A DNA stretch of 64,000 bases from the sequence record NC_031928.1. The stretch is one strand, 5' to 3'. Every line of letters begins with the position of its first letter. The first letter of the stretch is position 1. The notes under the pieces were generated by a model. The model was not told the DNA's origin. It was given only the letters and a program-made list of their open reading frames with translations, and made no database searches. Origin of the DNA: Escherichia phage WG01. Made by a program: the position numbers and the translations under genes. This document shows positions 16,840 to 52,400 of this stretch, one piece after another.

Positions 16840-17850
16840 TCATTTATAATACGAGTTATGGTTTTCTAGGTAAACCTGCTCAACGAACTTGTCCCAGAAC
16901 TTCATGTCTACCTTCTCAGGCATACCGTTCTTGGCCGCCCAGATGGCATTGGTTTCGACTTCATCAACGATAGCTTCAAGTTCGGCCTGTACATCTTTAA
17001 AAGCATGAAGCCCTTGTTTGATTTCAAGGATAAACGGTGCTGTACGTAAAGGATATTGGAGGTCACCTGTTTGATAGATTTCCTTCAACTGGTATCCAGC
17101 ACGATAAGCGTGGCTCAGAGCTTTCCAGTCAATACCTTCGTTAGCTTCAGCTTTACGAGCACGTTCACCATATTCCGCATCAAGCTTATTCAGGGATTGC
17201 TTGAGCTCTGTAATTGATAACGTTGTTTGGTACTTACGTCCGAGAACAGTATAGAACGTTTGCGGACCTGTTTTCTCATGGTTATGGAATACCCATTCAC
17301 AGAACTCATTTTCAGGGAGTCTGTGTTTGATATCTTCTACCTTAGTACGACGAAGTCTATCAGGGATTCCTTCTTGATAATCGACCCACTGTTCAGGAAT
17401 CTGGTTAACAATAGCCAGTACACCACGCAGTGCAGCTAGTCGAGAACCCTTAACACCATATTTAGAAGCTTGCTTACGGACGTACCCTAAATAGGCTTTC
17501 ATGTTAGTCGTATAGAACCGAGAACGATTGTCTTGGATAAATTTCCATACACCAGGTAAATCAGATTTAACCACCAGTTCAGGTGGAGTGTGGAGCATAT
17601 CCAGAGCAACGGTTTCGCCTTCAGCAGCCAGTTTAAAGAAATATTTCAGACTGTAAAGCTCGTGGTCAACATCATCTTTAGTGTTTTTGGAAGCAGTGTT
17701 ATTCGTATTCAGGTTGGTATGGTTCATAGCCGTACCTAACAGAATATCACGCGGATGTGGAACAAAGATTTCTTTAAAATCAACATCAGATTCTGGAGTA
17801 CTTGTTCCATAAAGGTGGCTACCGAAGTAGCCTTTCATAACTGTTCTCAT
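16840..17850 (-). CDS. hypothetical protein with minimal nucleotidyltransferase-like motif
   Basis: 336 aa; N-terminal GYFGSHLYGTSTPESDVDF fits the pol-beta superfamily pattern hG[GS]x(9-13)Dh[DE]h; remainder predicted helical. Confidence 0.45.
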   Translation of the reverse strand: MRTVMKGYFGSHLYGTSTPESDVDFKEIFVPHPRDILLGTAMNHTNLNTNNTASKNTKDDVDHELYSLKYFFKLAAEGETVALDMLHTPPELVVKSDLPGVWKFIQDNRSRFYTTNMKAYLGYVRKQASKYGVKGSRLAALRGVLAIVNQIPEQWVDYQEGIPDRLRRTKVEDIKHRLPENEFCEWVFHNHEKTGPQTFYTVLGRKYQTTLSITELKQSLNKLDAEYGERARKAEANEGIDWKALSHAYRAGYQLKEIYQTGDLQYPLRTAPFILEIKQGLHAFKDVQAELEAIVDEVETNAIWAAKNGMPEKVDMKFWDKFVEQVYLENHNSYYK

Positions 17851-18299
17851 TCTTTGTCCTCGAAGTGGATTACCGGACAGACCTTAGATTTACGAGCTTT
17901 AATGTATTGAATAACGATGTTTTCTTTAGTTTCTCGGCCTTCACGCTCAGCTTGAATACGTTGCCATTCCTTTTCTTCTCTACGGGCATCATACCATGCG
18001 TGTAAATTCATCGCACCGAATGCCAAACCAATGGATAGCGCAATAATAAGAGCTATTGCAACCAATCCTAAAACAAACCCTAGACTCAACAGAACAGGGG
18101 TACTTAATACAAAGAAATGCTCTAATACACCAACACCTGCAACAGTTAATCCAAAAAGCGTACTACCTGCAACAACAGCACAAGCAAAACAAGCCCAAAC
18201 CATTTTCCAGAAGTAAGCACACAAAGAGTGTGGTCGAGAATGACGGTCATAAAAACGGTCATGAAGTTTAGCGTGCCAAGAGTTTGCATTGATAATCAT
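17847..18299 (-). CDS. membrane protein (150 aa)
   Basis: ATG with AAGGA RBS; three or four hydrophobic helices. Confidence 0.45.
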   Translation of the reverse strand: MIINANSWHAKLHDRFYDRHSRPHSLCAYFWKMVWACFACAVVAGSTLFGLTVAGVGVLEHFFVLSTPVLLSLGFVLGLVAIALIIALSIGLAFGAMNLHAWYDARREEKEWQRIQAEREGRETKENIVIQYIKARKSKVCPVIHFEDKE

Positions 18300-18309
18300 A
18301 ATATTTTCC

Positions 18310-18870
18310 TTAAGAGTTCATAGTTGGGATAACAGAGTTCAGATAAGAGACTAAAACTTTTAGTTCGTCTTTAGTAAATACCACTTCACTTTCACCATCG
18401 TGTCTTTGGGTCAAGGATAACAAATCACGGCCCTGATGTTGATACACGGTTAATTCAGTATCATAATTCAGTTCTTCTTCATCACCTTCAAAGGTTTCAC
18501 TAGAACGAATCACGGCATCTTGGCCAGGGACTTTCCATTCAACTTCCGGCTTGCATTCTTCCTGGAACAGTTTGAAAATACAATCAAAGAATTTATCAGA
18601 ATCGCTGATGCTCAGACATTCAATACCATTTTCCAGATTAAACCCGGTTTCATTTTTATAGATATAGGCAAACATATCATCATTGATATCGATAGGAGCA
18701 CTAGCCCGACCGTTAAGATAATCGTGTCTATCTAAAACCATTAAATCATAAAGCGGTTTAATATCAGCGATAGTCAGTACGATTTTATCGTCTTCTTGTG
18801 AAAGCTCAATTGCGTTATTAACTACTTCAGCGGACAGTTCGCCAAACAATTCAGTTGTTTCAATAATCAT
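18310..18870 (-). CDS. hypothetical highly acidic protein (186 aa)
   Basis: ATG with GAGGA RBS; strong D/E excess. Confidence 0.45.
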   Translation of the reverse strand: MIIETTELFGELSAEVVNNAIELSQEDDKIVLTIADIKPLYDLMVLDRHDYLNGRASAPIDINDDMFAYIYKNETGFNLENGIECLSISDSDKFFDCIFKLFQEECKPEVEWKVPGQDAVIRSSETFEGDEEELNYDTELTVYQHQGRDLLSLTQRHDGESEVVFTKDELKVLVSYLNSVIPTMNS

Positions 18871-18880
18871 TTTCTATTCC

Positions 18881-19078
18881 TCAACGGTTATGTTTTAAAA
18901 TACTATAAAGCTCTTCGACTTGGTCTGCATTCAGACAAATCATATCATTTTCTTGTTGGAGCGTGATTCCACCTTTTTCTTCCCAATCTTTAACAAAGAC
19001 GTCATCGTCAGATTCTTCAACATCTGCTAAAAGGGCAATCACACCATCTTCAGAACAACCATTTGGATCGTATAACAT
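18881..19078 (-). CDS. hypothetical acidic protein (65 aa)
   Basis: ATG ORF. Confidence 0.35.
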   Translation of the reverse strand: MLYDPNGCSEDGVIALLADVEESDDDVFVKDWEEKGGITLQQENDMICLNADQVEELYSILKHNR

Positions 19079-19199
19079 TTACAATTTCCTCACTAACCAT
19101 GAAAAGAATAAACCGATTAAAATAGGGCCTATAATCATTGTTGACCAAGCCCAGGGTTCTAAGTAATAAATCATCTTCATGCTCCTATGCCGACAGCCA

Positions 19200-19386: not shown

Positions 19387-19623
19387 TCACCAGTATTTGT
19401 TGATAGTAGAAATTAATTCTTGGGCTTGGGTAGTCTTCAGTTTACATCCACAACCCTTTAATGTGTCTTTAAGGAGCCACGGTTCCTTGAGCTCGTCCTT
19501 TTCTAGACGAATTCTGTATCCTCGATAATCAGCGAAGATACTTCGGTCGTCGAATATCTTAATCTCAAGGATACGACCGTTGATTTCATATTCTAATGAA
19601 ACCGTAGTACTTGTAAGTTTCAT
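19387..19623 (-). CDS. hypothetical protein (78 aa)
   Basis: ATG ORF directly downstream of a promoter cassette. Confidence 0.4.
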   Translation of the reverse strand: MKLTSTTVSLEYEINGRILEIKIFDDRSIFADYRGYRIRLEKDELKEPWLLKDTLKGCGCKLKTTQAQELISTINKYW

Positions 19624-19640
19624 ACTGTTCTCCTCATTAG

Positions 19641-19680
19641 TTGATAGGTCTATAGTATCATGTTCCTAGAGGATGTAAAC
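19641..19680 (-). promoter_or_regulatory. early promoter cassette
   Basis: GTTTACA -35, TACTATAGACC -10 region, same cassette. Confidence 0.55.
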
Positions 19681-19687
19681 ACCTAAA

Positions 19688-19714
19688 CGAAAAAAGGTCC
19701 CACCGAAGTGAGAC
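19688..19714 (-). terminator. rho-independent terminator
   Basis: 8-bp stem with CGAA-type loop followed by T6 on the minus strand. Confidence 0.55.
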
Positions 19715-19720
19715 CTTTGA

Positions 19721-20104
19721 TTATTCTAACGTCAGCAAATACTTAGTCTGGTAAAAGACGCCAGTGATATCGTCCAAAGTCGACTGGATGGCCTTAGGAA
19801 GGGTGTCATAGATTTTATCAGATGCTTTAAGAAGCTCGTCAAGGAAATCTACAGGGTCCTTAGGCAAGTCTGAAGCAGACGGTAATGATGCTTTATATTC
19901 TTTGCCACTGAATCCAAGATATTGCTCACTAAATTGGTCCAGCGGTCCTTGAACTTCTACATAATAGAAGTCATACGCTTTGTGTCTTGCATAGCTTTTG
20001 GTTTCTAAATGGGCTGACTTAAAATAGGCTAAAGAAACCAGTAGCCAACCAATATAAGAATCCACTTCAGACCCTCGACTGGGTACGAAATCATTGAACT
20101 TCAT
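19721..20104 (-). CDS. hypothetical protein (127 aa)
   Basis: ATG ORF; T4 rI.-1 position. Confidence 0.4.
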   Translation of the reverse strand: MKFNDFVPSRGSEVDSYIGWLLVSLAYFKSAHLETKSYARHKAYDFYYVEVQGPLDQFSEQYLGFSGKEYKASLPSASDLPKDPVDFLDELLKASDKIYDTLPKAIQSTLDDITGVFYQTKYLLTLE

Positions 20105-20384
20105 CTTCCACCTTCATTAGTTTTACATAACGCTCTCCGATGGCCCGACCTTCAATTGAGCACGCTTCTATAGTCCGACAACTTGAAATCTTCCAGGAAG
20201 CCGTAACATAGGCCCAATAGTCTTCGGAGGCCTTTACGCTGGGTCTACTCATTTGCGCATAAACAGGCATCGCACTACTAGCAAATGCATCCATCAATTT
20301 ATCATTGGCACCATTTGCTAGTGAAACTGTAGGGCTTAAACATCCCGCCATAAGGATACAAGCCGCTGTACGGAAAATATCCAT
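20091..20384 (-). CDS. secreted protein, candidate RI-like antiholin
   Basis: 97 aa (T4 RI length); N-terminal signal-like segment; position adjacent to tk as rI is in T4; sequence similarity only loosely recalled. Confidence 0.4.
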   Translation of the reverse strand: MDIFRTAACILMAGCLSPTVSLANGANDKLMDAFASSAMPVYAQMSRPSVKASEDYWAYVTASWKISSCRTIEACSIEGRAIGERYVKLMKVEDEVQ

Positions 20385-37797: not shown

Positions 37798-38199
37798 TTA
37801 ACCCTCGTCTACAATAGTATGGGTATTGGCATTAACAATCTGCCACCAGTCAAAACGATCTGAGCCGTAAAGAGGATTATTCTCGTTTTCTTTAACAATT
37901 TCACGTAGTTCGTCTTCAGAAAATGCTTTAGCGATTAAATCGGTATAGCCACCACGTGGATAATAGTTATCACCAGCGAACAAAAGGAAATTTACCTTTC
38001 CAGAAGGAACATATGCTTCCTTAGGATACTTGTTTCCTGCATGGTCTACCACTTCAATATAACGGTAAGGAATATCAGTACTTTCAACCCATTGCCAAGC
38101 CGCAGCAGGGGATTCAAAAGCATCAACACCTAAACGGTTATCTTCATCTTTAGACGGATTATTTTCATAATCCGCATATACATAATATTCAACGTTCAT
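37798..38199 (-). CDS. hypothetical acidic protein (133 aa)
   Basis: ATG ORF. Confidence 0.4.
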   Translation of the reverse strand: MNVEYYVYADYENNPSKDEDNRLGVDAFESPAAAWQWVESTDIPYRYIEVVDHAGNKYPKEAYVPSGKVNFLLFAGDNYYPRGGYTDLIAKAFSEDELREIVKENENNPLYGSDRFDWWQIVNANTHTIVDEG

Positions 38200-38384
38200 T
38201 ATTCACCTTTAGAGATTTTATCCATAACGATAGCGATTAAGCCGATTAGAAATGCTACTACCAATGAGATAGAATTTTCTGTTGTTGTCAGTAGTCCACA
38301 AATGAATCCTACAAACATCGAAAAGCTAAAAGCCATTGAAGCAATTACTACAGCAACATTACGAATCAGTTCAGCGCGTTTCAT
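38199..38384 (-). CDS. small membrane protein (61 aa)
   Basis: two hydrophobic helices. Confidence 0.4.
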   Translation of the reverse strand: MKRAELIRNVAVVIASMAFSFSMFVGFICGLLTTTENSISLVVAFLIGLIAIVMDKISKGE

Positions 38385-38401
38385 TTTATTCTCCTCAGTA
38401 G

Positions 38402-38442
38402 TTGATAGGGTAATAGTATCACTACCCTATCTAAAAGTAAAC
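38402..38442 (-). promoter_or_regulatory. early promoter cassette
   Basis: GTTTAC -35 and dyad AGGGTAATAGTATCACTACCCT. Confidence 0.5.
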
Positions 38443-38453
38443 GGTTTTATAAA

Positions 38454-38762
38454 CTATTTTATTCCGCGTGATGCAATCGTATTCTGCCGTTTAACGCCAG
38501 TTTGTTTAAAGTTATGATTGTCGAGTTGATCGGTACGAGCAACTCCGAATGATGATTTAATCTTAGCTTTAGATCCTTTAGTTATAGAAATAAACATCTC
38601 GGGAGCCCCTTTCTTAAAGTCCGAAGCAATTACTTCAACACCGTTCTTAGCAAGTGACCTCAGAATTGCTTCCACATACTCATCATCAAGACCTGCTTGA
38701 GTATGAATAACGAATGTCTTTGGTGCAGCCGCTTCATTGATAAATTCTTGGTATGATTTCAT
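38454..38762 (-). CDS. internal-protein-like packaged protein (CTS-tagged, 102 aa)
   Basis: N-terminus MKSYQEFINE. Confidence 0.6.
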   Translation of the reverse strand: MKSYQEFINEAAAPKTFVIHTQAGLDDEYVEAILRSLAKNGVEVIASDFKKGAPEMFISITKGSKAKIKSSFGVARTDQLDNHNFKQTGVKRQNTIASRGIK

Positions 38763-38784
38763 TTTATTTTCCTAATTAATTTTG

Positions 38785-38822
38785 ATGAGATAATAGTACC
38801 ACAACCCTATTTAAAAGTAAAC
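38785..38822 (-). promoter_or_regulatory. early promoter cassette
   Basis: GTTTAC -35 and TACTAT -10-like. Confidence 0.45.
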
Positions 38823-39095
38823 TCATTTTAAATAAATTGCATATTTTTTATAACCCGCTGTCTCATGACGAAGACCCTTATCATTAGCAAAACGCTCAAT
38901 GTTGTTAATTTGATTCTGGTCAAGTTCAGAGATGTCAAACACGAAAAAGTTACGTTTGTTGCCTAAAGTTACGTGATTAGTCAAATCGATGTTATAGAGA
39001 TGATTTATATTATCAATCATGGTCTTAACAGATTTGTTAATTTTTACTTCTTCATTAAGAATAGATTCAGCGATAAATTCTTGGTATGATTTCAT
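38823..39095 (-). CDS. internal-protein-like packaged protein (CTS-tagged, 90 aa)
   Basis: N-terminus MKSYQEFIAE. Confidence 0.6.
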   Translation of the reverse strand: MKSYQEFIAESILNEEVKINKSVKTMIDNINHLYNIDLTNHVTLGNKRNFFVFDISELDQNQINNIERFANDKGLRHETAGYKKYAIYLK

Positions 39096-39096
39096 T

Positions 39097-39318
39097 TTAT
39101 TCTACGCCTGCGGCTTTCAAAAGTTTTTTAAGATTGGCTATGCCGCCAGCAGAAAACGTGACCTTGCCACCTTTTTCATTGATAGAGCCAGTCAATTTAG
39201 CAAGCTTATCACTAGGGACTTTTTTAAAATCAGCCAGTATGCCATCAAAGGTTTTTGTAACAACCGGCAGTTGGTCATGTTTTTTGGCTTCTGTAATAAA
39301 TTCTTGATAAGCTTTCAT
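39097..39318 (-). CDS. internal-protein-like packaged protein (CTS-tagged, 73 aa)
   Basis: N-terminus MKAYQEFITE. Confidence 0.6.
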   Translation of the reverse strand: MKAYQEFITEAKKHDQLPVVTKTFDGILADFKKVPSDKLAKLTGSINEKGGKVTFSAGGIANLKKLLKAAGVE

Positions 39319-39345
39319 TTTTGATTTCCGTTTGGTTAGTTTGTT

Positions 39346-39385
39346 TTGATAGGTCTATAGTATCATGCCTATAGACCTTGTAAAC
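39346..39385 (-). promoter_or_regulatory. early promoter cassette
   Basis: GTTTACA -35; dyad GGTCTATAG/CTATAGACC. Confidence 0.55.
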
Positions 39386-39396
39386 AACTTTTTAAA

Positions 39397-40295
<899 letters not shown>

Positions 40296-41647: not shown

Positions 41648-41729
41648 AGGGTTCCTATATTGCTTAAGTCCCAGACAGTGTATAATGGTCCTAGGTCTGT
41701 TCCATTCAATAACTGGCTGGGATAATAGA

Positions 41730-42557
41730 TTATGAATTCTTCCATACTTTCTGAGCTGAATAACGCTTGCCTTTAGACATGAACTGTTGGAGCGGCATCA
41801 TTACGACATTAGCCCAATCAGACGGTTTTATCTCTACTAAAGGTCCCTTAATATTTCCAGGGATATAAGCCTTAATCATCACGTCGGCGCCAGCGAATCC
41901 TTTTACCTTACTCCAATCGATTTTTAATTTAGTCGAGTTCGTAATGGTAGGCGTACTCGCGTATTGCTTCAGCAATTCTTCCAGAAATTGCTGACGTGCT
42001 TTAGGTGGAATATAGTGTAAGTTCAGTCCGTACATTAAATTATGCTTACCTAACCCAAGATAAATTATTAAAGGATATTTGTCCCAGTATGGTAGGGTAT
42101 CCTTATGTTTGGCATCATAGATATAAGCATAAAGCTTACCAGGAGACGGTTTAGATACCTGGTGCCCACGAATTCCTTTCTTTAATGTTTCTGTAAACCA
42201 TTTAGCCGATTTATTGTTTACAGCGGCGCCCTCGTTAGCAATCTTATCACGAATACTCTTTCTAAAACTATTCACCAAAATTAATTGACGTTCTGCTTTG
42301 GTTAATTTATTGCCAGGTTTCTTCTGAAGTTTTTCAACCTGTACAGCAGTTTTAATTCGACTCGAGTATCGAGACATCGCAGATGTAAAGCTAGAATACT
42401 TGATGCCTTTATCTTCAGCGAATTTCTTAGCCGAAACACCTTTAGCCTTAGCGTTGGCATATTCAACGCCTAAAGTTATCCATTGTTGTTCTGAACGAGT
42501 AGGCTTGGAACCTTTTGTAGTTTCAGTAGCCTCGTTGATGTAAGAAAATATACTCAT
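41730..42557 (-). CDS. 2: DNA end protector gp2
   Basis: ~275 aa; ATG at 42557 overlaps gp4 stop; position as in T4. Confidence 0.8.
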
Positions 42558-43003
42558 CCTTTCCATCCTAATTTTTTCAGTGAGTTTTCGGTAATCAATC
42601 TGAAATTAATTCCCATTTTATCTGCTGTAGCTTTAGCAGCTTTCCATTTATCTTTATTTACACTCCATGTATAATGTTCGTTGATATATCTCTTTTTAGC
42701 AGCTGTAGTCATTTTAGCAGGCGCCGCTGGAGGATGGGTCTCTTTAAAAGGTTTGACTTCGAAAAAGAATTGTTGACCATTGTCGAACTTCACCCAGAAG
42801 TCCATAAAATACCGACGTTTCTTTCCATCAGCGTTACTAAAATATGGAATCACAACCTCTTCCGAGTTCCACTGGACGACATTAGGATGGTTGTCAAGCC
42901 AACGCATAAGCCATGCTTCCCAAGAGGAACGATATTGGATTTTCTTCCAATCACCTTTATATTTTTGTAAGTTTGTAGGTTTAAATTTCCCTGAGTAGGC
43001 CAT
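42554..43003 (-). CDS. 4: head completion protein gp4
   Basis: 149 aa (T4 gp4 is 150); AGGAGG RBS; divergent from gene 53. Confidence 0.85.
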
Positions 43004-43048
43004 AGTGCCTCCTTATAAATATTAATATTATTTATACTCGGAGGCACT
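43003..43048. promoter_or_regulatory. divergent late-promoter region for genes 4 and 53
   Basis: TATAAATA on the plus strand (43014..43021) and on the minus strand (43029..43036), bracketed by a perfect 9-bp inverted repeat AGTGCCTCC/GGAGGCACT that contains both RBSs. Confidence 0.65.
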
Positions 43049-43651
43049 ATGCTCTTCTCATTTTTCGATCCTATAAATTACGAATCAAAAACAGTCAAGC
43101 CAGATTCCGGCTCATTAACTGATGCCGATGTACTGAGCGTACCGATGACTGATATATTTAGAAACTATAAAGAATATTTTGATAAAGTGGCTAAAAATTA
43201 TACACTTAAAACATATTATATCAGTGGGGCCCCTCGTCCAGAAGAATTAGCCCATCAACTTTATGGTAACGTGCAATTATATTGGGTTTTATTGATGTGT
43301 AATAACGTATATGACCCTTATTACGGCTGGATTACAGGCCAAGAATCTGCGTATCAAGCAGCTATTCAACGTTATGCTACTGCAGGCGGAAACCAAGTCC
43401 TTTATCATGTCAATGAAAAGGGTGAGAAATTCTGGAATCTAGTAAATACTCCGGAAAATCCTTATACTTGGTACGATAAAGGTGATACAGAAAAACGTTA
43501 TCCTCAATATGAAGGTCCTTTGGCTGCAGTAGATATTTACGAGGACGCCATTCGTAAAAATGAATATAAGCGCGAAATAAAGATTATAGACCCTAATGAC
43601 ATCGAGTCCTTTGTTTCCGCTTTAATTAGAGAAATGGAGAAAGCCCTCTAA
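43049..43651 (+). CDS. 53: baseplate wedge protein gp53
   Basis: 200 aa; MLFSFFDPINYESKT matches T4 gp53 as recalled. Confidence 0.9.
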   Translation: MLFSFFDPINYESKTVKPDSGSLTDADVLSVPMTDIFRNYKEYFDKVAKNYTLKTYYISGAPRPEELAHQLYGNVQLYWVLLMCNNVYDPYYGWITGQESAYQAAIQRYATAGGNQVLYHVNEKGEKFWNLVNTPENPYTWYDKGDTEKRYPQYEGPLAAVDIYEDAIRKNEYKREIKIIDPNDIESFVSALIREMEKAL

Positions 43652-45438
43652 TGATTAACATGTCTGATAATGTAAGTTGGTTCGTCGGTGTAGTTGAAGA
43701 CCGAATGGACCCACTCCAACAAGGCCGAGTACGCGTGCGCGTATGGGGTATGCATCCCTATGAAAAGGTGCAAGGTCCTGTAAAAGGCCTTCGTACAGAA
43801 GATTTACCATGGATGTCGGTATTAATGCCTACATCTTCTGCCTCTGTTTCAGGTATCCAAACCGCTATGACTGGTATGGTCCCCGGTACACAAGTTTATG
43901 GTCACTTTCTTGATAAGTGGAAATTAAACGGACTTGTCCTTGGTACATACGGTTCCGCTTCAAGACAGAAGGCTAATCCTAATGAAGGGTTTAGTGACCC
44001 TACAGGCCAATATCCGCTTTATTTAGGTAACGATGCTGCTGCTTTAAACCGAGGTGGTGAAGTTGGATACGATGCCACTTCTAACGTAATACAAGATGCA
44101 AACACTGATGTAGGTATTAATCCTGACGGGTTGGATTTAAGTCAAGTCAAACCAGACGATAATCCTAATTTCACAATAGAAAACATGCTTCATCGTGATG
44201 AAGGGCTTAGACTGAAGGTATATTGGGATACCGAAGGTTATCCTACTATAGGTATAGGCCACCTTATCACACCACAACCTATTAGAGATATGAATCGAAT
44301 AAACAAAATATTATCTAATCAGGTAGGACGAGAAGTTAAAGGTAACCCTGGTGCAATATCAATGGATGAGGCTTCTAAATTATTCCAAGAAGACCTTAAA
44401 AAAGTCCAAAACGATATAGGTCGGCATAGTGTTGTAGGTCCTGTTTACAATAAAGAAAACCGTTCAAGACAAATGGCTCTTGAAAACATGGCTTTCCAAA
44501 TGGGATTAGGTGGATTGGCTAAATTCCGTGGAATGCTTAGTGCAATGCTAATAGGCGATTATAAAAAGGCATTTGAGGAAGCTCGTAATTCAGTATGGTT
44601 TAACCAAACTAAAGGTCGCGCATCAAGGGTGTCAATGATTATCCTCACAGGTAACATGGAATCATATGGTATTATGGCCCCTAAAGAAAGGTCATTTAAT
44701 GGCCGTTCGTATAGAATGATTCAAACCTTTGTGGCCCCTACAAATTCAGACCCTGCCGACCCGTGGACTCCAGAAGACACAAGGATTCTTTTTAAAGAAC
44801 CTGATTCTAGTTATAAAGGCGAATATCCATATGTCCAAACCATGCAAACTGAAGGCGGGCATATCCAAGAATTCGATAATACCCCAGGGCAAGAACGATA
44901 CCGTTTAATCCATCCTACCGGTAGTTATGAAGAAGTTGCTCCTGATGGACGTAAAACTTCTAAGACGGTAGCCGATGGTTATTATATGACCCAAGGCGAT
45001 TCAAATACTTATGTTGGTGGTAATAATAAAGTCAACGTTGGTGGCGATGAAACCTATTATAATATGGCAAACGTGCGCCGTCAAACTGATGGGTCTGAAA
45101 GCATTCATATTCGAGGGAATGAAACCAAAACTGTAGAAGGTAATGGAACTCTGCTTGTTAAAGGAAATGTTAAAATAGTTATTATGGGTACTGCTGATAT
45201 AACTGTTGAACAAGAAGCATATATTACGGTTGAAAAAGATACAACAGTTAATGTCAACCAGAATGCAGATATAAGCGTTAAACAAAAGGCCACAATCAAT
45301 GCTCAAAATATGGATGTAAATGTCGAACAAGATTTAAATTTTGCAGCGACGAACATTAATTTAAACGCATCAAATACTGTGCATATGGATGGCGGTTCAT
45401 TAGCTAAAGTATCTGGTGGCAACGTACAGGTCGGTTAA
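43651..45438 (+). CDS. 5: baseplate hub/central spike protein with lysozyme domain gp5
   Basis: 595 aa; N-terminal WFVGVVEDRMDP; lysozyme domain DEGLRLKVYWDTEGYPTIGIGHL; C-terminal beta-helix repeats. Confidence 0.93.
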   Translation: MINMSDNVSWFVGVVEDRMDPLQQGRVRVRVWGMHPYEKVQGPVKGLRTEDLPWMSVLMPTSSASVSGIQTAMTGMVPGTQVYGHFLDKWKLNGLVLGTYGSASRQKANPNEGFSDPTGQYPLYLGNDAAALNRGGEVGYDATSNVIQDANTDVGINPDGLDLSQVKPDDNPNFTIENMLHRDEGLRLKVYWDTEGYPTIGIGHLITPQPIRDMNRINKILSNQVGREVKGNPGAISMDEASKLFQEDLKKVQNDIGRHSVVGPVYNKENRSRQMALENMAFQMGLGGLAKFRGMLSAMLIGDYKKAFEEARNSVWFNQTKGRASRVSMIILTGNMESYGIMAPKERSFNGRSYRMIQTFVAPTNSDPADPWTPEDTRILFKEPDSSYKGEYPYVQTMQTEGGHIQEFDNTPGQERYRLIHPTGSYEEVAPDGRKTSKTVADGYYMTQGDSNTYVGGNNKVNVGGDETYYNMANVRRQTDGSESIHIRGNETKTVEGNGTLLVKGNVKIVIMGTADITVEQEAYITVEKDTTVNVNQNADISVKQKATINAQNMDVNVEQDLNFAATNINLNASNTVHMDGGSLAKVSGGNVQVG

Positions 45439-45439
45439 T

Positions 45440-47503
45440 ATGAATTACTACGATAAAGTTGATGAAGTGGTAGGGACTGTAACAAGTCCCTGTGATGACG
45501 CAGTAGGACCCGGTGAATATCGCCGGGTTAAATGGGAATTATATAACCCAACAGGTGCTTTTATTCAACCTGGGAATGGCGTTGAATGGGATACCGAGAT
45601 TATTCCACTAGCTACACATTTATACACACAAAATCCATTTGGTAATAAGTCCGAAACTTTTCCTGCACCTCCCCCACCGGAAGATGGAACAAGTCAAGGT
45701 ATCTGGTGTGCTAAACTCGGAATATTCTTTATTACGCAATTGGATTTAGAAAATTATGTAGAATCGATTGGTGCAACTCTTTTGCCCGGTAATGATTGGT
45801 ACGGCGCTGATTTATCAAAATCTGTATTGTATAAAACATCTATTGAATATGATATGTATCGCATCGAAAACTGTGGCGGTGTATGGACATCACAAGGCCC
45901 CAGAATGGACCCCAGGACGATGATTGCAGTTACGGCTGATTATCATATGTATGTCAACTTTAACGGCCTTGGTGACTCCCGCAGGGCTTATTTGAAGTAC
46001 TATGAGACAAAACCTTGTACTTATGTTGGACTGGTATTAAATCTAGATGTTGATATGAGTATCCCAGGAACTCCGATTCCGGGACCGGTATCCATCGGGT
46101 CTTTACCGCCAGAAATAACCGGGCGAGCCAGGGCAATAAGCTGTGTTCCTTTTACAGCGGAATTCCCTTACAACGGATTGACCAATGCGATTATGGCTTC
46201 ATGGAATACATCTAGGAATTCATTCAAATTATATTGGGATATGCTCCCTGGATGGCCATCATCTGGTGGAACCGATTGGGAAAAATTCTTCGATTCTGGT
46301 TATAGTAAGCTATCGGTCGCAATGGAAGAGCTAGGCAACTCGGCTGTTGCTATGTGTCAATATGTTCAGCAAATGGCTTTTCTTGCATTTAAAGATGCCA
46401 TATCACAGGTCTTGAATATTGTTGGCGGTGGGTGGGACTTACTTAAAAGCTTTTTACCCTCGATTACTATTATGGGCATGACTATTGACCTAGAAGACCT
46501 CTGCACTTCAGGTGATGGTGTACAGAAATTAAAAGAAGCATGGAAAAACTTTAATTTAGAAGAAACCATCCAATCGATTTATTCTGCCATTGGGTCTGCA
46601 TACGATTATTCGGTTGAACGCGTCAAGATGTATTCGCGTGACCTTATTGATGCAATTACAGACTTGTATGACTGGGCCTGGTCTCAATTGCTTATGGCTG
46701 GTGTTGCATTATCAAAACTGTGTGTAGACCTCGCTCAAATATGGAGTATGCCTCCTATAGTTCCGAACCCAGTTTGGAGCGTTATTACTGCGGTCAAGGA
46801 AATGATGAAGCAAGTTAAACCACTGGACATGATAATGAGCGGTAACTTTCCAGGATTCACAGCATCAGATGTTTATCAAATGGTTATGGAAAAGGTAGAC
46901 CAGAAAATAGACGAAGCTTATGCAATGATTGAGGCTCTTAAAACCCAGGCACTCAATCTGTGGAATGAGATTAAGCTCAAAAAGCAAGAAGTACAAAAAC
47001 AAGCTATTGAATTTAAACAATATCTTTCAGGAATGTACGAAAAAGTTACAGACGAGCTAACTGCTCAGAAGGAAGCCGCATTAGCACAAGCTGAAGCTGC
47101 ACTCGAACTTTTAAAGAATAAATATAATCAGATTAAGAACTCTATTACCGAAAGTCAAACCTCCGTTTCTGATGTATTAGATATGGCTTTAGAAGAATTC
47201 AAAAAACTTCCTATTGTGGCTCAAATGGAAGAACTTCTCGGTATGCTCGGAGCTACTGTAGATGATATCATGGTTATATACGAGAACTCAGTAACTAAAG
47301 CAAAATCTTTATATCACGAATTTACTGATGGTTCCAGGTCAATGAAAGACTTGTGCAAATCAATGTATAACCAAATATCAACATTATCCTTAAGTAAGGT
47401 GGTACAATGGATTAATAAGATGCTGGGAATATTCGGTTTAACGATTGCATTTCCATCCCTTTCCATTTGCATACCTTGTTTAGAATCTCCTACTAGGAAT
47501 TAA
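45440..47503 (+). CDS. large hypothetical protein (687 aa) between genes 5 and 6
   Basis: ATG at 45440 directly after the gp5 stop; mixed N-terminal half, long coiled-coil C-terminal half, hydrophobic C-terminus; no motif recognised. Confidence 0.6.
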   Translation: MNYYDKVDEVVGTVTSPCDDAVGPGEYRRVKWELYNPTGAFIQPGNGVEWDTEIIPLATHLYTQNPFGNKSETFPAPPPPEDGTSQGIWCAKLGIFFITQLDLENYVESIGATLLPGNDWYGADLSKSVLYKTSIEYDMYRIENCGGVWTSQGPRMDPRTMIAVTADYHMYVNFNGLGDSRRAYLKYYETKPCTYVGLVLNLDVDMSIPGTPIPGPVSIGSLPPEITGRARAISCVPFTAEFPYNGLTNAIMASWNTSRNSFKLYWDMLPGWPSSGGTDWEKFFDSGYSKLSVAMEELGNSAVAMCQYVQQMAFLAFKDAISQVLNIVGGGWDLLKSFLPSITIMGMTIDLEDLCTSGDGVQKLKEAWKNFNLEETIQSIYSAIGSAYDYSVERVKMYSRDLIDAITDLYDWAWSQLLMAGVALSKLCVDLAQIWSMPPIVPNPVWSVITAVKEMMKQVKPLDMIMSGNFPGFTASDVYQMVMEKVDQKIDEAYAMIEALKTQALNLWNEIKLKKQEVQKQAIEFKQYLSGMYEKVTDELTAQKEAALAQAEAALELLKNKYNQIKNSITESQTSVSDVLDMALEEFKKLPIVAQMEELLGMLGATVDDIMVIYENSVTKAKSLYHEFTDGSRSMKDLCKSMYNQISTLSLSKVVQWINKMLGIFGLTIAFPSLSICIPCLESPTRN

Positions 47504-47504
47504 A

Positions 47505-49463
47505 ATGGCTACTCCTACGAATTACCAATTAACAAGAACCGTTAACGCTATCCCAAAAGTATTTGTGGGAGCTACGTTTGAAGAGATTAAAAAGAATATT
47601 ATCGATTGGCTTTCTAGCCAGGACGAATTTAAGGATTACGATTTCGTTGGTTCGCGAATGAATATCCTGATTGACATGTTAGCTTACAACACCCTGTATA
47701 TGCAGCAGTTTGCTAATACCGCGGTATATGAATCTTTCATCGGTACTGCTAACTTGCGTTCCTCCGTCGTCCAGGCTGCACAGGATAACGGCTATTTGCC
47801 AAGTTCTAAATCAGCAGCCAAAACAAGTATCATGTTGACCTGTACCCAAGCCCTGAATGAAAAGAATATTCGTATCCCACGTGGTACTAAATTCTTGGCC
47901 TATGCCCGTGATACTTCAGCAGACCCGTATGCTTTTGTTACCACGGAAAACGTTATTGCCGTACGTGATGTTAATAACCAATATCTTCCTATCGTATCTT
48001 TAGCACAAGGTCGTATTATCCGTACTGAACTTAAGTATGACCCTAAAACTCCTATTCTTATTCGTGACCCGGATATTGATAGACAGGAAGTTAAACTTTA
48101 TGTCGATGGCGCAGAATGGACTAACTGGACTAATAAATCCATGGTTCATGCTGGTAGTACATCAACAATTTACTATATGCGTGAAACCGTAGATGGTAAT
48201 ACTGAATTCTTCTTTGGTGAAGGTGTTGCTGAAAAATCAGTTGCAGGTGGGGTATTAGAAGCTAATTATATTGGTGGTTTAAAACCTGTTAAAGATGCTA
48301 CCATTGTTATAGAATACCTTCGTACAGATGGTGAAGTTGCTAACGGGGCAGTGGACTTTAGTTATGCGGATTCTTTGGCATATATTACGGTTGAAAAAAT
48401 TACAGAAAACTACGATGAAAACCCGGATTATGTAGGTGCTGACGGTGGTGGTGACCCTGAAGATATTGAACGTATTCGTGAACTTGCTGTAGTTAAACGT
48501 GAAGCCCAGATGCGTGCTGTAACCGGTACAGATTATGATACATTCGTTTCGGAGCGATTTGGTTCTATTGTACAAGCAGTACAAACCTTTACAGACCCAA
48601 ATAAACCAGGTTATGCCTTTGTTACCATTAAACCTAAATCAGGATTGTATTTGACTGCGGTTCAACGCGAAGATATCCAAAATTATCTTTCAGAATTTAA
48701 CTTGGCACCTATTACCCCTTCGGTTATTTCTCCTGACTACTTGTTCTTGAAGCATAAAATTAAGGTTTCATATGCACTGAACAAATTACAGGAATCCGAA
48801 CAATGGTTAACGGCTCAAATCCTTTCCCAAATAGACCGTTATTATATTAACGAAGTTGAAATATTCAACCACGGATTTGCCAAGTCTAAAATGCTGACTT
48901 ATATTGATAATGCAGACCACAGTATCCTTGGCTCTTCGGCTACGGTAACAATGGTTCGCGAGGTATTAAACTTCTTCAAAACACCTGAAGCAGGTATTAA
49001 ATACTATAATCAATACACCAACCGTTCTGTAACTTCTAGTGAATTTGAGTTCGTCCCAACAAACGTATCTGATGTTGTTAAATCTTACAACGTACGTATT
49101 GTTGCCACAGATAAAGACGAACGAGGCGATGGTAAAATGGTTATAGGTCCTTTCCGACCTGGCGATGTAATTGAAAACCAATACATCCAACCTTACACCG
49201 GAGATGACTTCGATAAAATGGCAGCGCCTGCAGACCAATCGGTCTACTATGTTATTGGCGAAATTGATTATTACTCGGACTTTATTTTCTGGGATATCGC
49301 CGCAATAGGCCTTACTTCCGACCGTTTTGAAGTCCAGTCTATTGAACTTTATGCAGGGCCAGACCAAGACAACATCTTTACCAAAGACGGTTCTTTAATC
49401 GTATTTGAAGATGACCTTCGTCCTCAGTACACAACTATAGAGTTGGAACCAATTACAATATAA
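47505..49463 (+). CDS. 6: baseplate wedge protein gp6
   Basis: 652 aa; NYQLTRTVNAIPKVFVGATFEEIK and later blocks match T4 gp6 as recalled. Confidence 0.93.
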   Translation: MATPTNYQLTRTVNAIPKVFVGATFEEIKKNIIDWLSSQDEFKDYDFVGSRMNILIDMLAYNTLYMQQFANTAVYESFIGTANLRSSVVQAAQDNGYLPSSKSAAKTSIMLTCTQALNEKNIRIPRGTKFLAYARDTSADPYAFVTTENVIAVRDVNNQYLPIVSLAQGRIIRTELKYDPKTPILIRDPDIDRQEVKLYVDGAEWTNWTNKSMVHAGSTSTIYYMRETVDGNTEFFFGEGVAEKSVAGGVLEANYIGGLKPVKDATIVIEYLRTDGEVANGAVDFSYADSLAYITVEKITENYDENPDYVGADGGGDPEDIERIRELAVVKREAQMRAVTGTDYDTFVSERFGSIVQAVQTFTDPNKPGYAFVTIKPKSGLYLTAVQREDIQNYLSEFNLAPITPSVISPDYLFLKHKIKVSYALNKLQESEQWLTAQILSQIDRYYINEVEIFNHGFAKSKMLTYIDNADHSILGSSATVTMVREVLNFFKTPEAGIKYYNQYTNRSVTSSEFEFVPTNVSDVVKSYNVRIVATDKDERGDGKMVIGPFRPGDVIENQYIQPYTGDDFDKMAAPADQSVYYVIGEIDYYSDFIFWDIAAIGLTSDRFEVQSIELYAGPDQDNIFTKDGSLIVFEDDLRPQYTTIELEPITI

Positions 49464-49464
49464 A

Positions 49465-49486
49465 CCTCTTCGGAGGTTTAAGGAGA
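49465..49486 (+). promoter_or_regulatory. intergenic hairpin between genes 6 and 7
   Basis: AACCTC-TTCG-GAGGTT stem-loop with no T-run, immediately before the gene 7 RBS. Confidence 0.3.
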
Positions 49487-49490
49487 TTTA

Positions 49491-52400
49491 ATGTCTGTAC
49501 AAGCGCCTTATGTTACTAGTCTGAGAATTGATAAACTCTCGGCTAACCATGTGAGCATTCTTTGGGATGACGTAGGCGCCAACTTCTATTATTTCGTAGA
49601 ACTGGCCCAAACGAAGGATGCGGGTGTAGAAATTCCCGACGATAGATTATTTTGGAGAAATTTAGGTTACACCCCTAATAACGAATGGTTTGAAGAGGCA
49701 TTCATTTCTCCTAATTCATTTTATAAAATGCGAGTTGCGGTGGCCGCCCAGGGGTTTGAGCAGTCCGAATGGGTTTACACTGAAGAATTTGAAACTTTCT
49801 CTACCAACGCATATACATTTGAGCATATGCGCGAATTCACTTTGTCTAATAAATTTATTGAAGAAAAATTCACAAAAAATAATCAGAATTATGTGAACTT
49901 TAATACCGATGCCATTATGGCTTCCTTAATGACGGAAGATTTTAACTTTACGCCAGCGTATTCGCATTTGTCATCTATATCAAATTATGTTTTAAAAGCC
50001 GACCGTTTCCATGAAATCCAAGGAAGCATCCAAGCGGTTTGTAAAGACCCTAAACGTTCTATTTTAATGGAACTTGGTGGTGTACTTTACCTTTTAGAAA
50101 GATTCCAAAGTACTGCTAAGGTTTCTAATGATAAAGGGCAGAACTGGCATTATATCCGTTTGTTTAATGACCGAGTAGGTAACCCTGTTTCGCGTACAGC
50201 ACATTACCAAACTGAAACTACTACGTATGTTCTAGGTTATGACCAAATATTTTACGGACGTAAATCAAGTGATATTCGTTGGTCTGCTGATGATGTCCGT
50301 TTTAGCTCCCAAGATATAACATTTGCTAAAATAGGTAGTGATATCGACCTTCCATTTGAAATCGAGATATTTGGGTCATATGCAAAACTTCCTTTGCCTA
50401 TTTCCACTATTGCTGAAGCTATATGCGCTTCTGATGATTTCATTTATGTTGCAGGTAGAGACAGAGTTTATAAAGCAAAAACATCTGAGGCCCCTATAGA
50501 CACCGACCCTAGTTCTCCGACTTATGGAGAGAAGATATTTGAAAGCGGATATTCGACTATCACAGGGAACCCTAAAGCAGTTTGTTATAAATTAGATTCT
50601 ATCCAAGGCCATACATTTGCTTTAATTACAGGTGAAGTTAAAGAAGAAAAAATGGACCCTACGGTCGAATCCAATGTGGTTGATTCTGAATCCAAAGGTG
50701 TTTATTGGTTAGACACTTCAACTGATACATGGACCCGTGTATTTGGAAACACTGAAGAAGAACGTCGTCGTATAGAGCATGGATATACCAGCATGTCTAC
50801 TGATGGAGAGGAATTATTTTTCAGTTCAAGCAACTTTAGATATGAAGTAGAGGTTGATTCTGAGCTTCCTTTGGAATACCCTGAAATTGTCACCTCCGCC
50901 GTTAAATATGTTAAAGATGAACAATGGATTCACGATAAACATTATTTGATGATGAGTTTTAGGTCTAACTCTAAATCCGATTTCAAAGAATTTAAACCTG
51001 GGCGTATGGCTTATTATGCCGAACCATTCTTTAGTTGGTCTCGACGCGATGGAACCCGTTCATGGATTACCACTGGTGACCATGCGATGGTTGTTTATAA
51101 CGATGCTTTATACCAGAAAATTATCGACCTGAACAGTGGTTCTTCACCTGAACGTATTGTTCATGAGATTTGGAATAAAGGTTTTTGTAAAGTCACATCT
51201 CCTAATATAGAGTTCAACGGCTTTAAGAAATATTCTTCTGGAATGATGATTCACAAATCTACAGGTGAATTGGTTGGATATTTTGAATTCGACTATCGTG
51301 TACGCGATGAAGTCCGTGTTATTTGGAAGCCTAAAGAAATTATGTTTACGGCTGAATTGCAAAACCAAGAACATGAAATCCCGTGGAAACCTAAAGAGGA
51401 AGTTGGTGAGCAAGACCCGGACCTCCAGCCTTTACTGGTTAAAATGATTCCAGATAGTTATTTGCTTCAAGATAGCAACTTTGAAAAATTCTGTGAATAC
51501 TATCTCCAATTTATTAGTGATGGCTCAGGTACACACTATAATAATTTGTTGAATCTTATTCGTAACCAATACCCACGTGAAGAAGATTCATGGGAATATT
51601 TGTGGTCGGAAATCTATAAGCGTAATATCTATTTGTCGAAAGAAAAACGCGACGAAGTAGTTCGTTTTTTCCAGGCGCGCCAAACCGATTTTTGGTCTAC
51701 AAAAGGTACCGAAGCTTCATATAAATTCCTGTTTAAATTGCTTTACAATGAAGATGTAGAAATTGATATCGAGTCCAAGAACTCTATCGAATATGATATC
51801 ATCGTAGAATCTGATAATATCAGTGAAGATATCGTAGGCCAAACGATTTATACTCCTACAGGTCGTAGTAATGTTACTTATATAGAACGAAATTACAAAG
51901 ATGGTAAACTGCAATGGCGTTTAACCATTCATAATCTTTTAGGTCGTTTTATAGTCGGACAGGAAATTAAATCTGAACGTACTTCGTTCAAGGGTATGAT
52001 TGTTCAGGGCGTACGTGGTAAAGAGCTTTTGAGTAACAATATCGACTATATCAACCGTAACCGTTCTTATTATGTGATGACCATTAAGTCTAATCTCCCT
52101 ACTTCTCGTTATCGCAACGATGTTTTGAGATTTGTTCATCCAGTAGGTTTCGGCTTTGTAGGTATAACTTTGCTTTCTATGTTCGTTAACGTAGGTTTAA
52201 CGCTAAAACATACAGAAACTATTATTAATATCCTTAAGAACTACAAATGGGACTCAGGTTTGCCATCTGAATGGTATGATAGAGTTGCTGTAATAGGTTT
52301 TGATGGTAATATAGAACGAGACCCTAGAACAGGACTTCCGGTTTATAACGTTGGACCTAAAGCAGGAGAACCGTTTGATATCCCTGCAGATTATGATGCG

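Follow-up and report, generated by a model that had tools for sequence, protein, structure and literature searches.

The 687-aa open reading frame (ORF) between baseplate genes 5 and 6 of Escherichia phage WG01 probably encodes the tip protein of the spike in this Bp7-like, T4-type phage, as a nonhomologous substitute for gp5.4 and perhaps also for gp5.1. We analyzed a 64,000-nt stretch of the genome (NC_031928.1), here called the window. A spike-tip role has already been proposed for a relative of this protein in phage RB43; what is new here is the inheritance of its gene as a cassette with the end of gp5. The features discussed below are as follows:

43014..43021, + strand, T4-type late promoter TATAAATA upstream of gp53 (motif scan)
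43651..45438, + strand, gene 5, baseplate hub and cell-puncturing spike with lysozyme, 595 aa (Pfam, phrog_430)
45208..45438, + strand, variant gp5 β-helix C-terminus, ∼76 residues, the spike tip platform (identity comparisons)
45208..47493, + strand, exchange cassette comprising the gp5 tip and the 687-aa ORF (blastn breakpoints against QL01)
45440..47503, + strand, 687-aa ORF, putative non-PAAR spike-tip protein
47505..49463, + strand, gene 6, baseplate wedge (Pfam; blastn against congeners)

The gene, its neighbors, and its family

The ORF listing and the sequence agree on an ATG at 45440 and a TAA stop at 47501-47503. We favor this ATG over an upstream GTG (45416) because all homologues begin at the equivalent MNY or MDY in our alignment. 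A single base follows the gp5 stop codon (TAA, 45436-45438) before the ORF begins, leaving no intergenic space at this junction, and a single base separates the ORF stop from the gp6 ATG (47505). A sequence-only reading had described a plus-strand ORF that fills the gp5-gp6 interval with 1-nt gaps; its coordinates and both junctions read as claimed, and the three peptide strings it quoted are all found in the translation.

Pfam identifies the neighbors as gp53, gp5, gp6, and gp7; gp5 contains Gp5_OB (3e-61), Phage_lysozyme, Gp5_trimer_C, and Gp5_C domains. The late promoter is the sole T4-type late motif on the plus strand from 38 to 54 kb, and because it precedes gp53, the gp53-gp5-ORF-gp6-gp7 genes probably form one late transcription unit. 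The ORF would then be expressed late, together with gp53 and gp5, and its translation is probably coupled to that of gp5.

The ORF matches the phrog_5296 profile from end to end (E = 0; aa 1-682 against positions 1-684 of 685). Full-length homologues occur in 214 phage records, and 62 full-length protein clusters lie at 31 to 100% identity; the ORF is therefore a genuine gene, far beyond chance. It is a full-length member of phrog_5296 and, judged by sequence, the orthologue of RB43 orf205w (43% identity over 99% of its length) and of Bp7 EpBp7_0254. One GenBank record names a homologue "tail length tape measure." Neither Pfam nor NCBIfam assigns the protein to a family, and when 1.84 billion representatives were searched deeply with an HMM, no remote family emerged other than ∼8 full-length clusters; the additional matches were tape-measure proteins aligned only in amphipathic helices. 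Matches to tape-measure, endolysin, and integrase entries in Pfam, NCBIfam, and PHROG were rejected as subthreshold coiled-coil noise.

Exchange of the gp5 tip and the ORF as a cassette

In both flanks of the ORF region, the window shares ∼98.7% identity with QL01, a phage of the same genus, but QL01 carries gp5.1 and gp5.4 (PAAR) between these flanks. The blastn breakpoints of this pair fall at 45207, within gp5 (aa 519), and at 47494; identity to PAAR-type congeners restarts ∼10 nt upstream of the gp6 ATG. The boundaries recur in an independent swap within Tequatrovirus, the genus of T4 itself: between G8 and T2, the equivalent breakpoints are at aa ∼515 of gp5 and 10 nt ahead of gp6.

The two parts of gp5 have different affinities. 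Compared with QL01, window gp5 is 97.9% identical over aa 1-519 but only 19.7% over aa 520-595. Compared with gp5 from G8, an ORF-type phage of another genus, the same two segments are 66.5% (body) and 90.8% (tip) identical. More generally, the window gp5 tip is 41 to 91% identical to those of ORF-type phages but 18 to 26% identical to those of PAAR-type phages; the tip goes with the ORF and not with the rest of the genome. The gp5 of the window ends in ...KVSGGNVQVG, and the ORF-type gp5 proteins that we compared have a common terminal motif, G[GA][NT]VQVG.

We examined ORF-bearing loci from GenBank (n = 6), IMG/VR (n = 12, some being the same phages), and divergent metagenomic sequences (n = 3). 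In every one, the ORF is preceded by a gp5-type β-helix with G[GA][NT]V.VG at its end and starts at the stop codon of that gp5 or within ∼10 nt of it. This adjacency is kept where gp6 does not come next (S13) or gp25 intervenes, and where gp5 lacks a lysozyme domain.

PAAR genes are missing on the ORF side of the exchange. We found no gp5.4 in the window, either by tblastn or with an HMM built from five gp5.4 proteins. Phage E33 matches most of the window at 97.5 to 99.6% identity; its entire 170,625-bp genome yielded neither gp5.4/PAAR (tblastn and HMM) nor gp5.1 (tblastn), in a search whose positive control was detected at 41% identity. Five gp5.1 proteins used as tblastn queries against the window or E33 gave just a 14-residue chance match elsewhere. 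These comparisons show that, in the loci and genomes examined, the ORF and a PAAR gp5.4 are mutually exclusive and the ORF is obligately linked to a particular gp5 tip.

That the ORF fills the slot of genes 5.1 to 5.4 exactly and travels with the β-helical tip of gp5 argues for a spike-associated virion protein. It likewise supports an earlier suggestion, made from the sequence, that the product could be structural or ejected, given its place in the spike module.

That the ORF merely landed in this interval, as unrelated accessory or selfish DNA (mobile-element cargo or a moron), is strongly disfavored and, we believe, very improbable: the 5-6 interval does vary among T4-like phages, and the window and E33 differ by a homing-endonuclease gene elsewhere, but Pfam, PHROG, and NCBIfam searches found no nuclease or mobility domain in the ORF, which is always full length and directly after gp5 across 29 to 100% identity and several genera, always with the matching gp5 tip and never alongside a PAAR gene.

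Predicted architecture and comparison with spike-tip proteins

The AlphaFold2 (AF2) monomer model of the ORF is confident (pLDDT, 86; pTM, 0.77), and together with the alignment it divides the protein as follows:

45440..46039, + strand, aa 1-200, compact α/β N-terminal domain, a fold without a PDB neighbor
46040..46318, + strand, aa 201-293, Pro-rich, less conserved, with a β-strand (234-241) containing C235
46319..46864, + strand, aa 294-475, conserved helical core (alignment, AF2)
46865..47179, + strand, aa 476-580, hairpin of two long antiparallel helices (475-529 and 538-575)
47180..47500, + strand, aa 581-687, conserved C-terminal helices and terminal hydrophobic β-strand (motif TLSLSKVxQWxNKxL)
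47456..47485, + strand, aa 673-682, C-terminal β-strand with C677 (AF2 secondary structure)

The N-terminal domain contains the conserved motif NDWYGADLSKS and two invariant cysteines, C18 and C193. Model confidence for aa 201-293 drops once the C-terminal part is removed. The core comprises a helix (294-328), a hydrophobic helix (398-435), and the motifs SMPPxVPNPxW and PLDxIxSGNFPGFTA. Conservation is lowest in the hairpin, which is the origin of the weak tape-measure and coiled-coil matches and probably an exposed distal rod. Foldseek found no PDB structure at E ≤ 0.001, only ABC-transporter helices.

The sequence-only reading had described the C-terminal half as a long coiled coil. Its helical character holds, since aa 294-664 (about 60% of the protein) are helical in the model, but only the hairpin (∼475-575) is coiled-coil-like. 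The membrane anchor implied for the C-terminus did not survive: the hydrophobic stretch is predicted to be a helix end followed by the β-strand 673-682, with two conserved prolines. We reject a C-terminal transmembrane helix on the basis of these prolines, the AF2 strand, and the joint loss of C235 and C677, which occur together in 43 sequences and are missing together from P0062, P0063, and P0065. The conserved cysteines fall into two pairs, C18/C193 and C235/C677, and strand 673-682 (C677) is likely to pair with strand 234-241 (C235).

In T4, the slot occupied by the ORF holds gp5.1 and gp5.4, the PAAR-repeat spike tip (PDB 4KU0). Both tip proteins would have the blunt end of the gp5 β-helix as partner and presumably the same role, completion of the membrane-piercing point. 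They differ in size (687 versus 97 aa) and in the gp5 tip sequence with which they occur. As the earlier reading had reported, the ORF has no match to the T4 5.x proteins: gp5.1 and gp5.4 lack homology to it by tblastn, HMM, and hhalign, the last giving a probability of 0.1% against the gp5.4 profile. Pfam found no PAAR domain (PF05488) at E ≤ 0.1, and we saw no fold similarity to the small conical β-structure of gp5.4. Nor is there a conserved histidine for a PAAR-type His/Cys metal site; the three histidines all lie outside the invariant or nearly invariant columns. Binding of the ORF to the blunt end of a gp5/VgrG β-helix is suggested indirectly by its coinheritance with the gp5 tip.

The closest precedent comes from RB43, whose orf205w was tentatively proposed as a "unique" spike-tip protein in a 2025-26 preprint (bioRxiv 10.1101/2025.08.28.672839; PMC13611949). 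According to that work, RB43, RB16, and Lw1 lack gene 5.4 and carry the homologue; a 17.7-Å cryo-EM map of the RB43 baseplate, with C6 symmetry imposed, has a larger spike tip, whose density the authors assigned only "possibly" to orf205w; coexpression of orf205w with gp5β failed; and in an AF3 prediction for phage Helios (gp202 trimer plus gp203), the homologue sits at the tip of gp5 (bioRxiv 10.1101/2025.08.28.672839; PMC13611949). Like the ORF, RB43 orf205w and Helios gp203 follow a gp5 with a variant C-terminus in the absence of gene 5.4, and orf205w also has an N-terminal α/β part followed by an all-helical remainder. The window differs from RB43 in its Dhakavirus (Bp7-like) backbone: the nearest relatives of this backbone are PAAR type, which is why the cassette boundaries are visible here. 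Our AF2 model is of high confidence, whereas the preprint termed that of the RB43 homologue low confidence. Tip function is putative for every phrog_5296 member, RB43 orf205w included.

Phage P1 offers a looser parallel. As described in PMC13611949, which cites PLoS Pathog 2026, its UpfB, like the ORF product, is an α-helical extension past the β-helical spike of a contractile-tailed phage, but P1 keeps a PAAR protein (UpfC) and adds three UpfB copies as a tripod, whereas the ORF is one polypeptide that would replace PAAR.

A putative non-PAAR tip and its alternatives

We propose that the ORF product uses its conserved core to bind the gp5 β-helix trimer at the blunt platform formed by its C-terminus, probably with one copy per gp5 trimer; in ORF-type phages this platform has a matching sequence of its own (...G-G-N/T-V-x-V-G). 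The poorly conserved hairpin of ∼100 residues would face away from gp5 and form the foremost point of the spike. When the sheath contracts, this tip protein would reach the outer membrane before any other part of the virion and would then be taken into the periplasm along with the gp5 β-helix. Direct binding to gp5, this orientation, and a part in penetration are what we infer from the evidence above; a 77-kDa asymmetric monomer atop a three-fold platform is structurally unusual.

We found no proteomic detection of this family in virions in the literature. The ValerieMcCarty phage proteomics concerns PAAR-type phages and is hence irrelevant to the ORF; the phiEap-3 paper has no mass spectrometry (MS); and the MS table for Morganella phage MP1 lists nothing between gp141 and gp147 (gp6), which would be informative only if MP1 carries the ORF.

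The protein might do more than sharpen the spike. In one extension of the spike-tip explanation, which does not exclude location at the tip and which we consider unlikely, the tip-borne protein has its main role after puncture: once it is released in the periplasm, its amphipathic and hydrophobic helices would refold into a membrane and help to form the DNA conduit or disturb the envelope. Precedents are α-pore-forming toxins and T3SS translocators, and such a role has been proposed for tape-measure proteins. It would fit a protein seven times the size of a PAAR cap with a conserved hydrophobic helix (aa 398-435), as well as reports that the P2 spike protein reaches the periplasm. It also fits weak similarities of aa ∼470-665 to PF10145-containing tape-measure profiles, in apolipoprotein-like amphipathic regions (E 1e-9 to 1e-4), and to Hbl-B of the ClyA family, one of the α-helical pore-forming toxins (ClyA/Hbl/YaxAB): Hbl-B, in the coiled coil, is the best match (E 0.003) in a profile search of the PDB that returned nothing significant. 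These likenesses, however, lie in generic long-helix regions, where prefoldin, HlyD, and designed bundles score equally or higher, and the hairpin that they match is less conserved than any other part of the ORF. Furthermore, no segment is convincing as a transmembrane helix; the hydrophobic C-terminus is a Pro-containing β-strand whose cysteine covaries with the N-terminal half. In its full form, which we hold to be similarly doubtful, the ∼77-kDa tip would be a delivered device: it is shed, its disulfide-clamped bundle opens, and it inserts into the membrane or engages an envelope component, nucleating a DNA channel or conditioning the periplasm.

Identity as a tape-measure protein can be rejected, because the matches cover only amphipathic helices. 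The PHROG tape-measure matches are at E 4e-4 or weaker, Pfam found no PhageMin_Tail domain (PF10145), and the genomic context of the ORF is the spike, whereas tape-measure genes belong to the tail-tube module. The E33 annotation includes a separate baseplate hub subunit, about the size of gp29, elsewhere in the genome.

We also give little credence, at roughly one chance in ten, to a nonvirion assembly factor, later discarded, that would act as a cap or chaperone for the variant end of the gp5 β-helix while it folds or the hub assembles. T4 tail assembly employs several dedicated chaperones, strict coinheritance with the gp5 tip would be expected equally of a folding or capping chaperone, and the lack of published proteomic detection is compatible with it; the larger RB43 tip density would then be due to a longer gp5 β-helix or to another protein. 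Yet that density is larger in a group of phages with no PAAR or other candidate tip gene, and the window β-helix is just 15 residues longer than that of QL01 (595 versus 580 aa for total gp5). At 687 aa, with a rod-like hairpin and a conserved domain that is novel, the protein would be an atypical chaperone, and its gene takes the place of a structural gene, 5.4.

If the spike-tip explanation is correct, a T4-type spike can do without the universal PAAR cap and carry in its stead a protein seven times larger that has no structural relative. T4 gp5.4 was itself characterized only recently, and how contractile injection systems complete the piercing point, and what the tip does beyond sharpness, is under active study. 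The identical boundaries in the two phage pairs imply that the functional unit is the gp5 tip plus the tip protein; the cassette predicts that the tip protein requires a cognate gp5 end, which may bear on the failed coexpression of the RB43 protein with gp5β. Should the tip prove to be delivered, phages would have an equivalent of the effectors that T6SS spikes carry, on a fold unseen before. QL01 versus Bp7/E33 and T2 versus G8 are natural near-isogenic pairs whose sole difference is the gp5 tip and tip protein; they allow a direct test of how a non-PAAR tip affects host range, for instance with hosts whose LPS is truncated.

The interval between gp5 and gp6

The sequence-only reading had described a single ORF filling the gp5-gp6 interval of Escherichia phage WG01, and this finding is real: the ORF listing gives a 687-codon plus-strand frame, direct reading of the sequence leaves one base on either side of it, and all peptide strings quoted earlier are found in its translation. 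Pfam identifies its neighbors as gp53, gp5, gp6, and gp7.

43014, plus strand: T4-type late promoter motif TATAAATA, just 5' of gp53
43029, minus strand: second TATAAATA motif
45436-45438, plus strand: gp5 stop codon (TAA), 1 base before the ORF ATG
45440-47503, plus strand: ORF, 687 aa (ATG 45440, stop 47501-47503)
47505, plus strand: gp6 ATG, 1 base after the ORF stop

The motif at 43014 is the only one on the plus strand between 38 and 54 kb, and the gp5-ORF junction is too small for a promoter or terminator; we infer that the ORF is cotranscribed late with gp5 and translationally coupled to it. The two TATAAATA motifs lie back-to-back, 15 nt apart, where the divergently transcribed genes gp4 and gp53 leave a short gap.

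In the ORF region, identity is 99.5% with Escherichia phage vB_EcoM-E33 and 96% with Bp7 (both genus Dhakavirus), and the protein is 100% identical to a Bp7 "hypothetical protein." It is matched end to end by phrog_5296 (unknown function), and Pfam and NCBIfam contain no family for it. With tblastn, full-length homologues were found in 214 of 50,697 phage records (versus 1,416 records with a gp5.4-like gene); hosts, where named, are nearly all Enterobacterales (Klebsiella, Escherichia, Enterobacter, Cronobacter, Citrobacter, Proteus, and others), and the RB43, RB16, Lw1, KP15, and Miro homologues are ∼43% identical to the ORF protein. A search of 5.8 billion proteins yielded 62 clusters, each covering the whole or almost the whole length, and searching 1.84 billion representatives with a profile added only a few divergent full-length members and fragments. 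The family is narrow and its architecture invariant. GenBank records MZ612130.1 and PQ657830.1 name their homologues inconsistently, one as "baseplate hub structural protein" and the other as "tail length tape measure." This naming is probably automated, and our tests did not support the tape measure label.

Joint exchange of the gp5 tip and the ORF

QL01, of the same genus, matches the window at 98.7% identity as far as 45207, which corresponds to gp5 codon ∼519 within the C-terminal β-helix, and identity restarts at 47494, 11 nt 5' of the gp6 ATG. Between these breakpoints QL01 has a different gp5 end and genes 5.1 and 5.4 (PAAR); the same pattern, with 67% coverage, recurs in the near-identical phages PSD9, ABTNLS3, and LQ5. 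A second, independent swap occurs in T4's own genus, between ORF-carrying G8 and PAAR-type T2, which share 96.6% identity as far as gp5 codon ∼515 and 97.3% identity again starting 10 nt 5' of gp6.

Identity of gp5 body (aa 1-519) and tip (aa 520-end) among ORF-type and PAAR-type phages
Window vs QL01 (same genus, PAAR-type): body 97.9%, tip 19.7%
Window vs G8 (other genus, ORF-type): body 66.5%, tip 90.8%
G8 vs T2 (same genus, PAAR-type): body 98.6%, tip 26.2%

Together, the DNA breakpoints and the body and tip identities show that the exchange unit is the last ∼75 gp5 residues plus the ORF, in place of the last ∼60 gp5 residues plus 5.1 and 5.4.

The ORF and PAAR exclude each other in the genomes and loci examined. 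In the complete 170,625-bp E33 genome, five diverse gp5.4 and five gp5.1 queries gave no tblastn match at E ≤ 1 (as a control, a 41%-identical query recovered the QL01 gene at 9e-21), and an HMM of the five gp5.4 proteins run against all six-frame E33 segments gave a best E of 1.7. Likewise, no PAAR gene lies within 3.5 kb of the ORF in any of 12 IMG/VR loci.

E33 and the window are mostly 97.5 to 99.6% identical, with a patch (16846-19195) and gaps such as 37980-39605 that are only ∼88% identical or unaligned, indicating local replacements in small-ORF (hyperplastic) regions. Between gp2 and gp3, E33 also has a gene of 645 bp (E33 19622-20266, "site-specific intron-like DNA endonuclease") that is missing from the window, where the aligned segments abut at 41729/41733, the junction of gp2 (41730-42566, minus strand) and the gene below it; the difference looks like presence or absence of a homing-endonuclease gene. 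In phage vB_EcoM_FB (MT682711.1, 76086-83719), the equivalent of window 43000-50000 is ∼630 bp longer and its alignment is split in two, which points to an insertion somewhere from gp53 to gp7.

The ORF start lies at the stop of a ∼580- to 600-aa gp5, or no more than ∼10 nt away from it, in RB43, KP15, S13, phiP4-3, G8, and the 12 IMG/VR loci, which are partly the same phages. In these loci gp5 ends K[VI][ST]G[GA][NT]VQVG; PAAR-type gp5 proteins of E. coli, Klebsiella, and Aeromonas phages have the terminus DGSRI[DN][ILV][GR]. The three most divergent family members (29 to 33% identity) also directly follow a gp5-type β-helix, ending TGGTVSVG, TGGTVVVG, or TGGTVKVG. What is conserved is linkage to the gp5 β-helix tip alone, because gp6 and the lysozyme domain vary: one divergent locus has gp25 between the ORF and gp6; in a JGI metagenome locus (3300076144, L029 219-1388) the divergent member P0065 directly follows a gp5 homologue of only 390 aa that has an OB domain and a β-helix but lacks the lysozyme domain; and in Cronobacter phage S13 (L006 2601-7267) the ORF is followed by small opposite-strand ORFs rather than gp6, its baseplate wedge genes having been split from the gp5 module.

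Predicted structure and the C-terminal segment

An AlphaFold2 monomer model built from a 43-sequence alignment is confident (mean pLDDT 86.2, pTM 0.77). Residues 1 to ∼200 fold into a compact α/β domain, whose pLDDT stays mostly >90 even when it is modeled alone, and 201 to 293 are Pro-rich and more variable. The α-helical part, 294 to 664, includes two long helices (294-328 and 398-435) and a helical hairpin (475-529 and 538-575), and it is followed by a β-strand (673-682). Since Foldseek found no PDB match at E ≤ 0.001 and profile-profile comparison with gp5.4 gave 0.1% probability, the ORF protein is analogous rather than homologous to PAAR; its N-terminal domain has no relative of solved structure.

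Most conserved stretches of the ORF protein
461-475: PLDxIxSGNFPGFTA
648-662: TLSLSKVxQWxNKxL
118-132: NDWYGADLSKS
326-340
432-446: SMPPxVPNPxW

Conservation is lowest in the long hairpin (476-580), which fits an exposed rod whose length is more important than its sequence. A membrane-active role after delivery draws on weak matches to PHROG tape measure families (E of 4e-4 and weaker), to tape measure proteins in the deep profile search (1e-9 to 1e-4), and to Hbl-B (0.003, same coiled-coil region). The tape measure matches are confined to aa ∼470 to 665, in apolipoprotein-like amphipathic regions of those proteins, and all sit in the least conserved part of the ORF protein and are most simply compositional; we give this role a low probability. 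The C-terminal segment, described as hydrophobic in the sequence-only reading, is rejected as a membrane anchor: it contains two conserved prolines, is a β-strand in the model, and shares in a paired cysteine loss.

C18 and C193 are invariant. C235 and C677 covary, both being present in 43 sequences and both lost in the divergent members P0062, P0063, and P0065. Because of this covariation, because few strands in the model are longer than 234-241 and 673-682, and because residues 205 to 294 drop in confidence when the C-terminal part is omitted, we infer that the C-terminal segment packs on strand 234-241, possibly through a disulfide or shared site, and would clamp the two protein ends together.

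A probable non-PAAR spike tip

The Leiman and Belin groups report in a preprint (10.1101/2025.08.28.672839) that RB43, RB16, and Lw1 lack gene 5.4, that orf205w (∼690 aa) fills the 5.1-5.4 locus, and that the RB43 baseplate, mapped by cryo-EM at 17.7 Å, has a larger spike tip, whose density a low-confidence AlphaFold model of orf205w fits; coexpression of orf205w with gp5β was unsuccessful. For Klebsiella grimontii phage Helios, an AF3 model places the homologue gp203 on the gp5 trimer (PMC13611949, 2026). This kind of tip is thus already proposed in the literature: the preprint words its assignment as "possibly," the Helios paper speculates that gp203 is a gp5.1/gp5.4 analogue, and a 2006 comparative-genomics paper merely lists RB43ORF205w with a nonsignificant domain match. 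We found no report of virion detection of any family member; the one T4-like mass spectrometry table of potential relevance, that of Morganella phage MP1, which may lack the ORF, has nothing between gp141 and gp147 (gp6), so gp5 too is missing from it.

We conclude that the ORF product is probably a spike-tip protein of the virion, taking the place of PAAR and docking on a matching, co-inherited gp5 β-helix end. It is a member, in a Bp7-like Dhakavirus, of a recently proposed kind. To this proposal we add cassette boundaries from two independent natural swaps, a gp5 terminal motif, genome-wide absence of PAAR from the near-identical E33, a confident model whose N-terminal domain has no PDB neighbor, a variable distal hairpin, and a cysteine covariation that reinterprets the C terminus.
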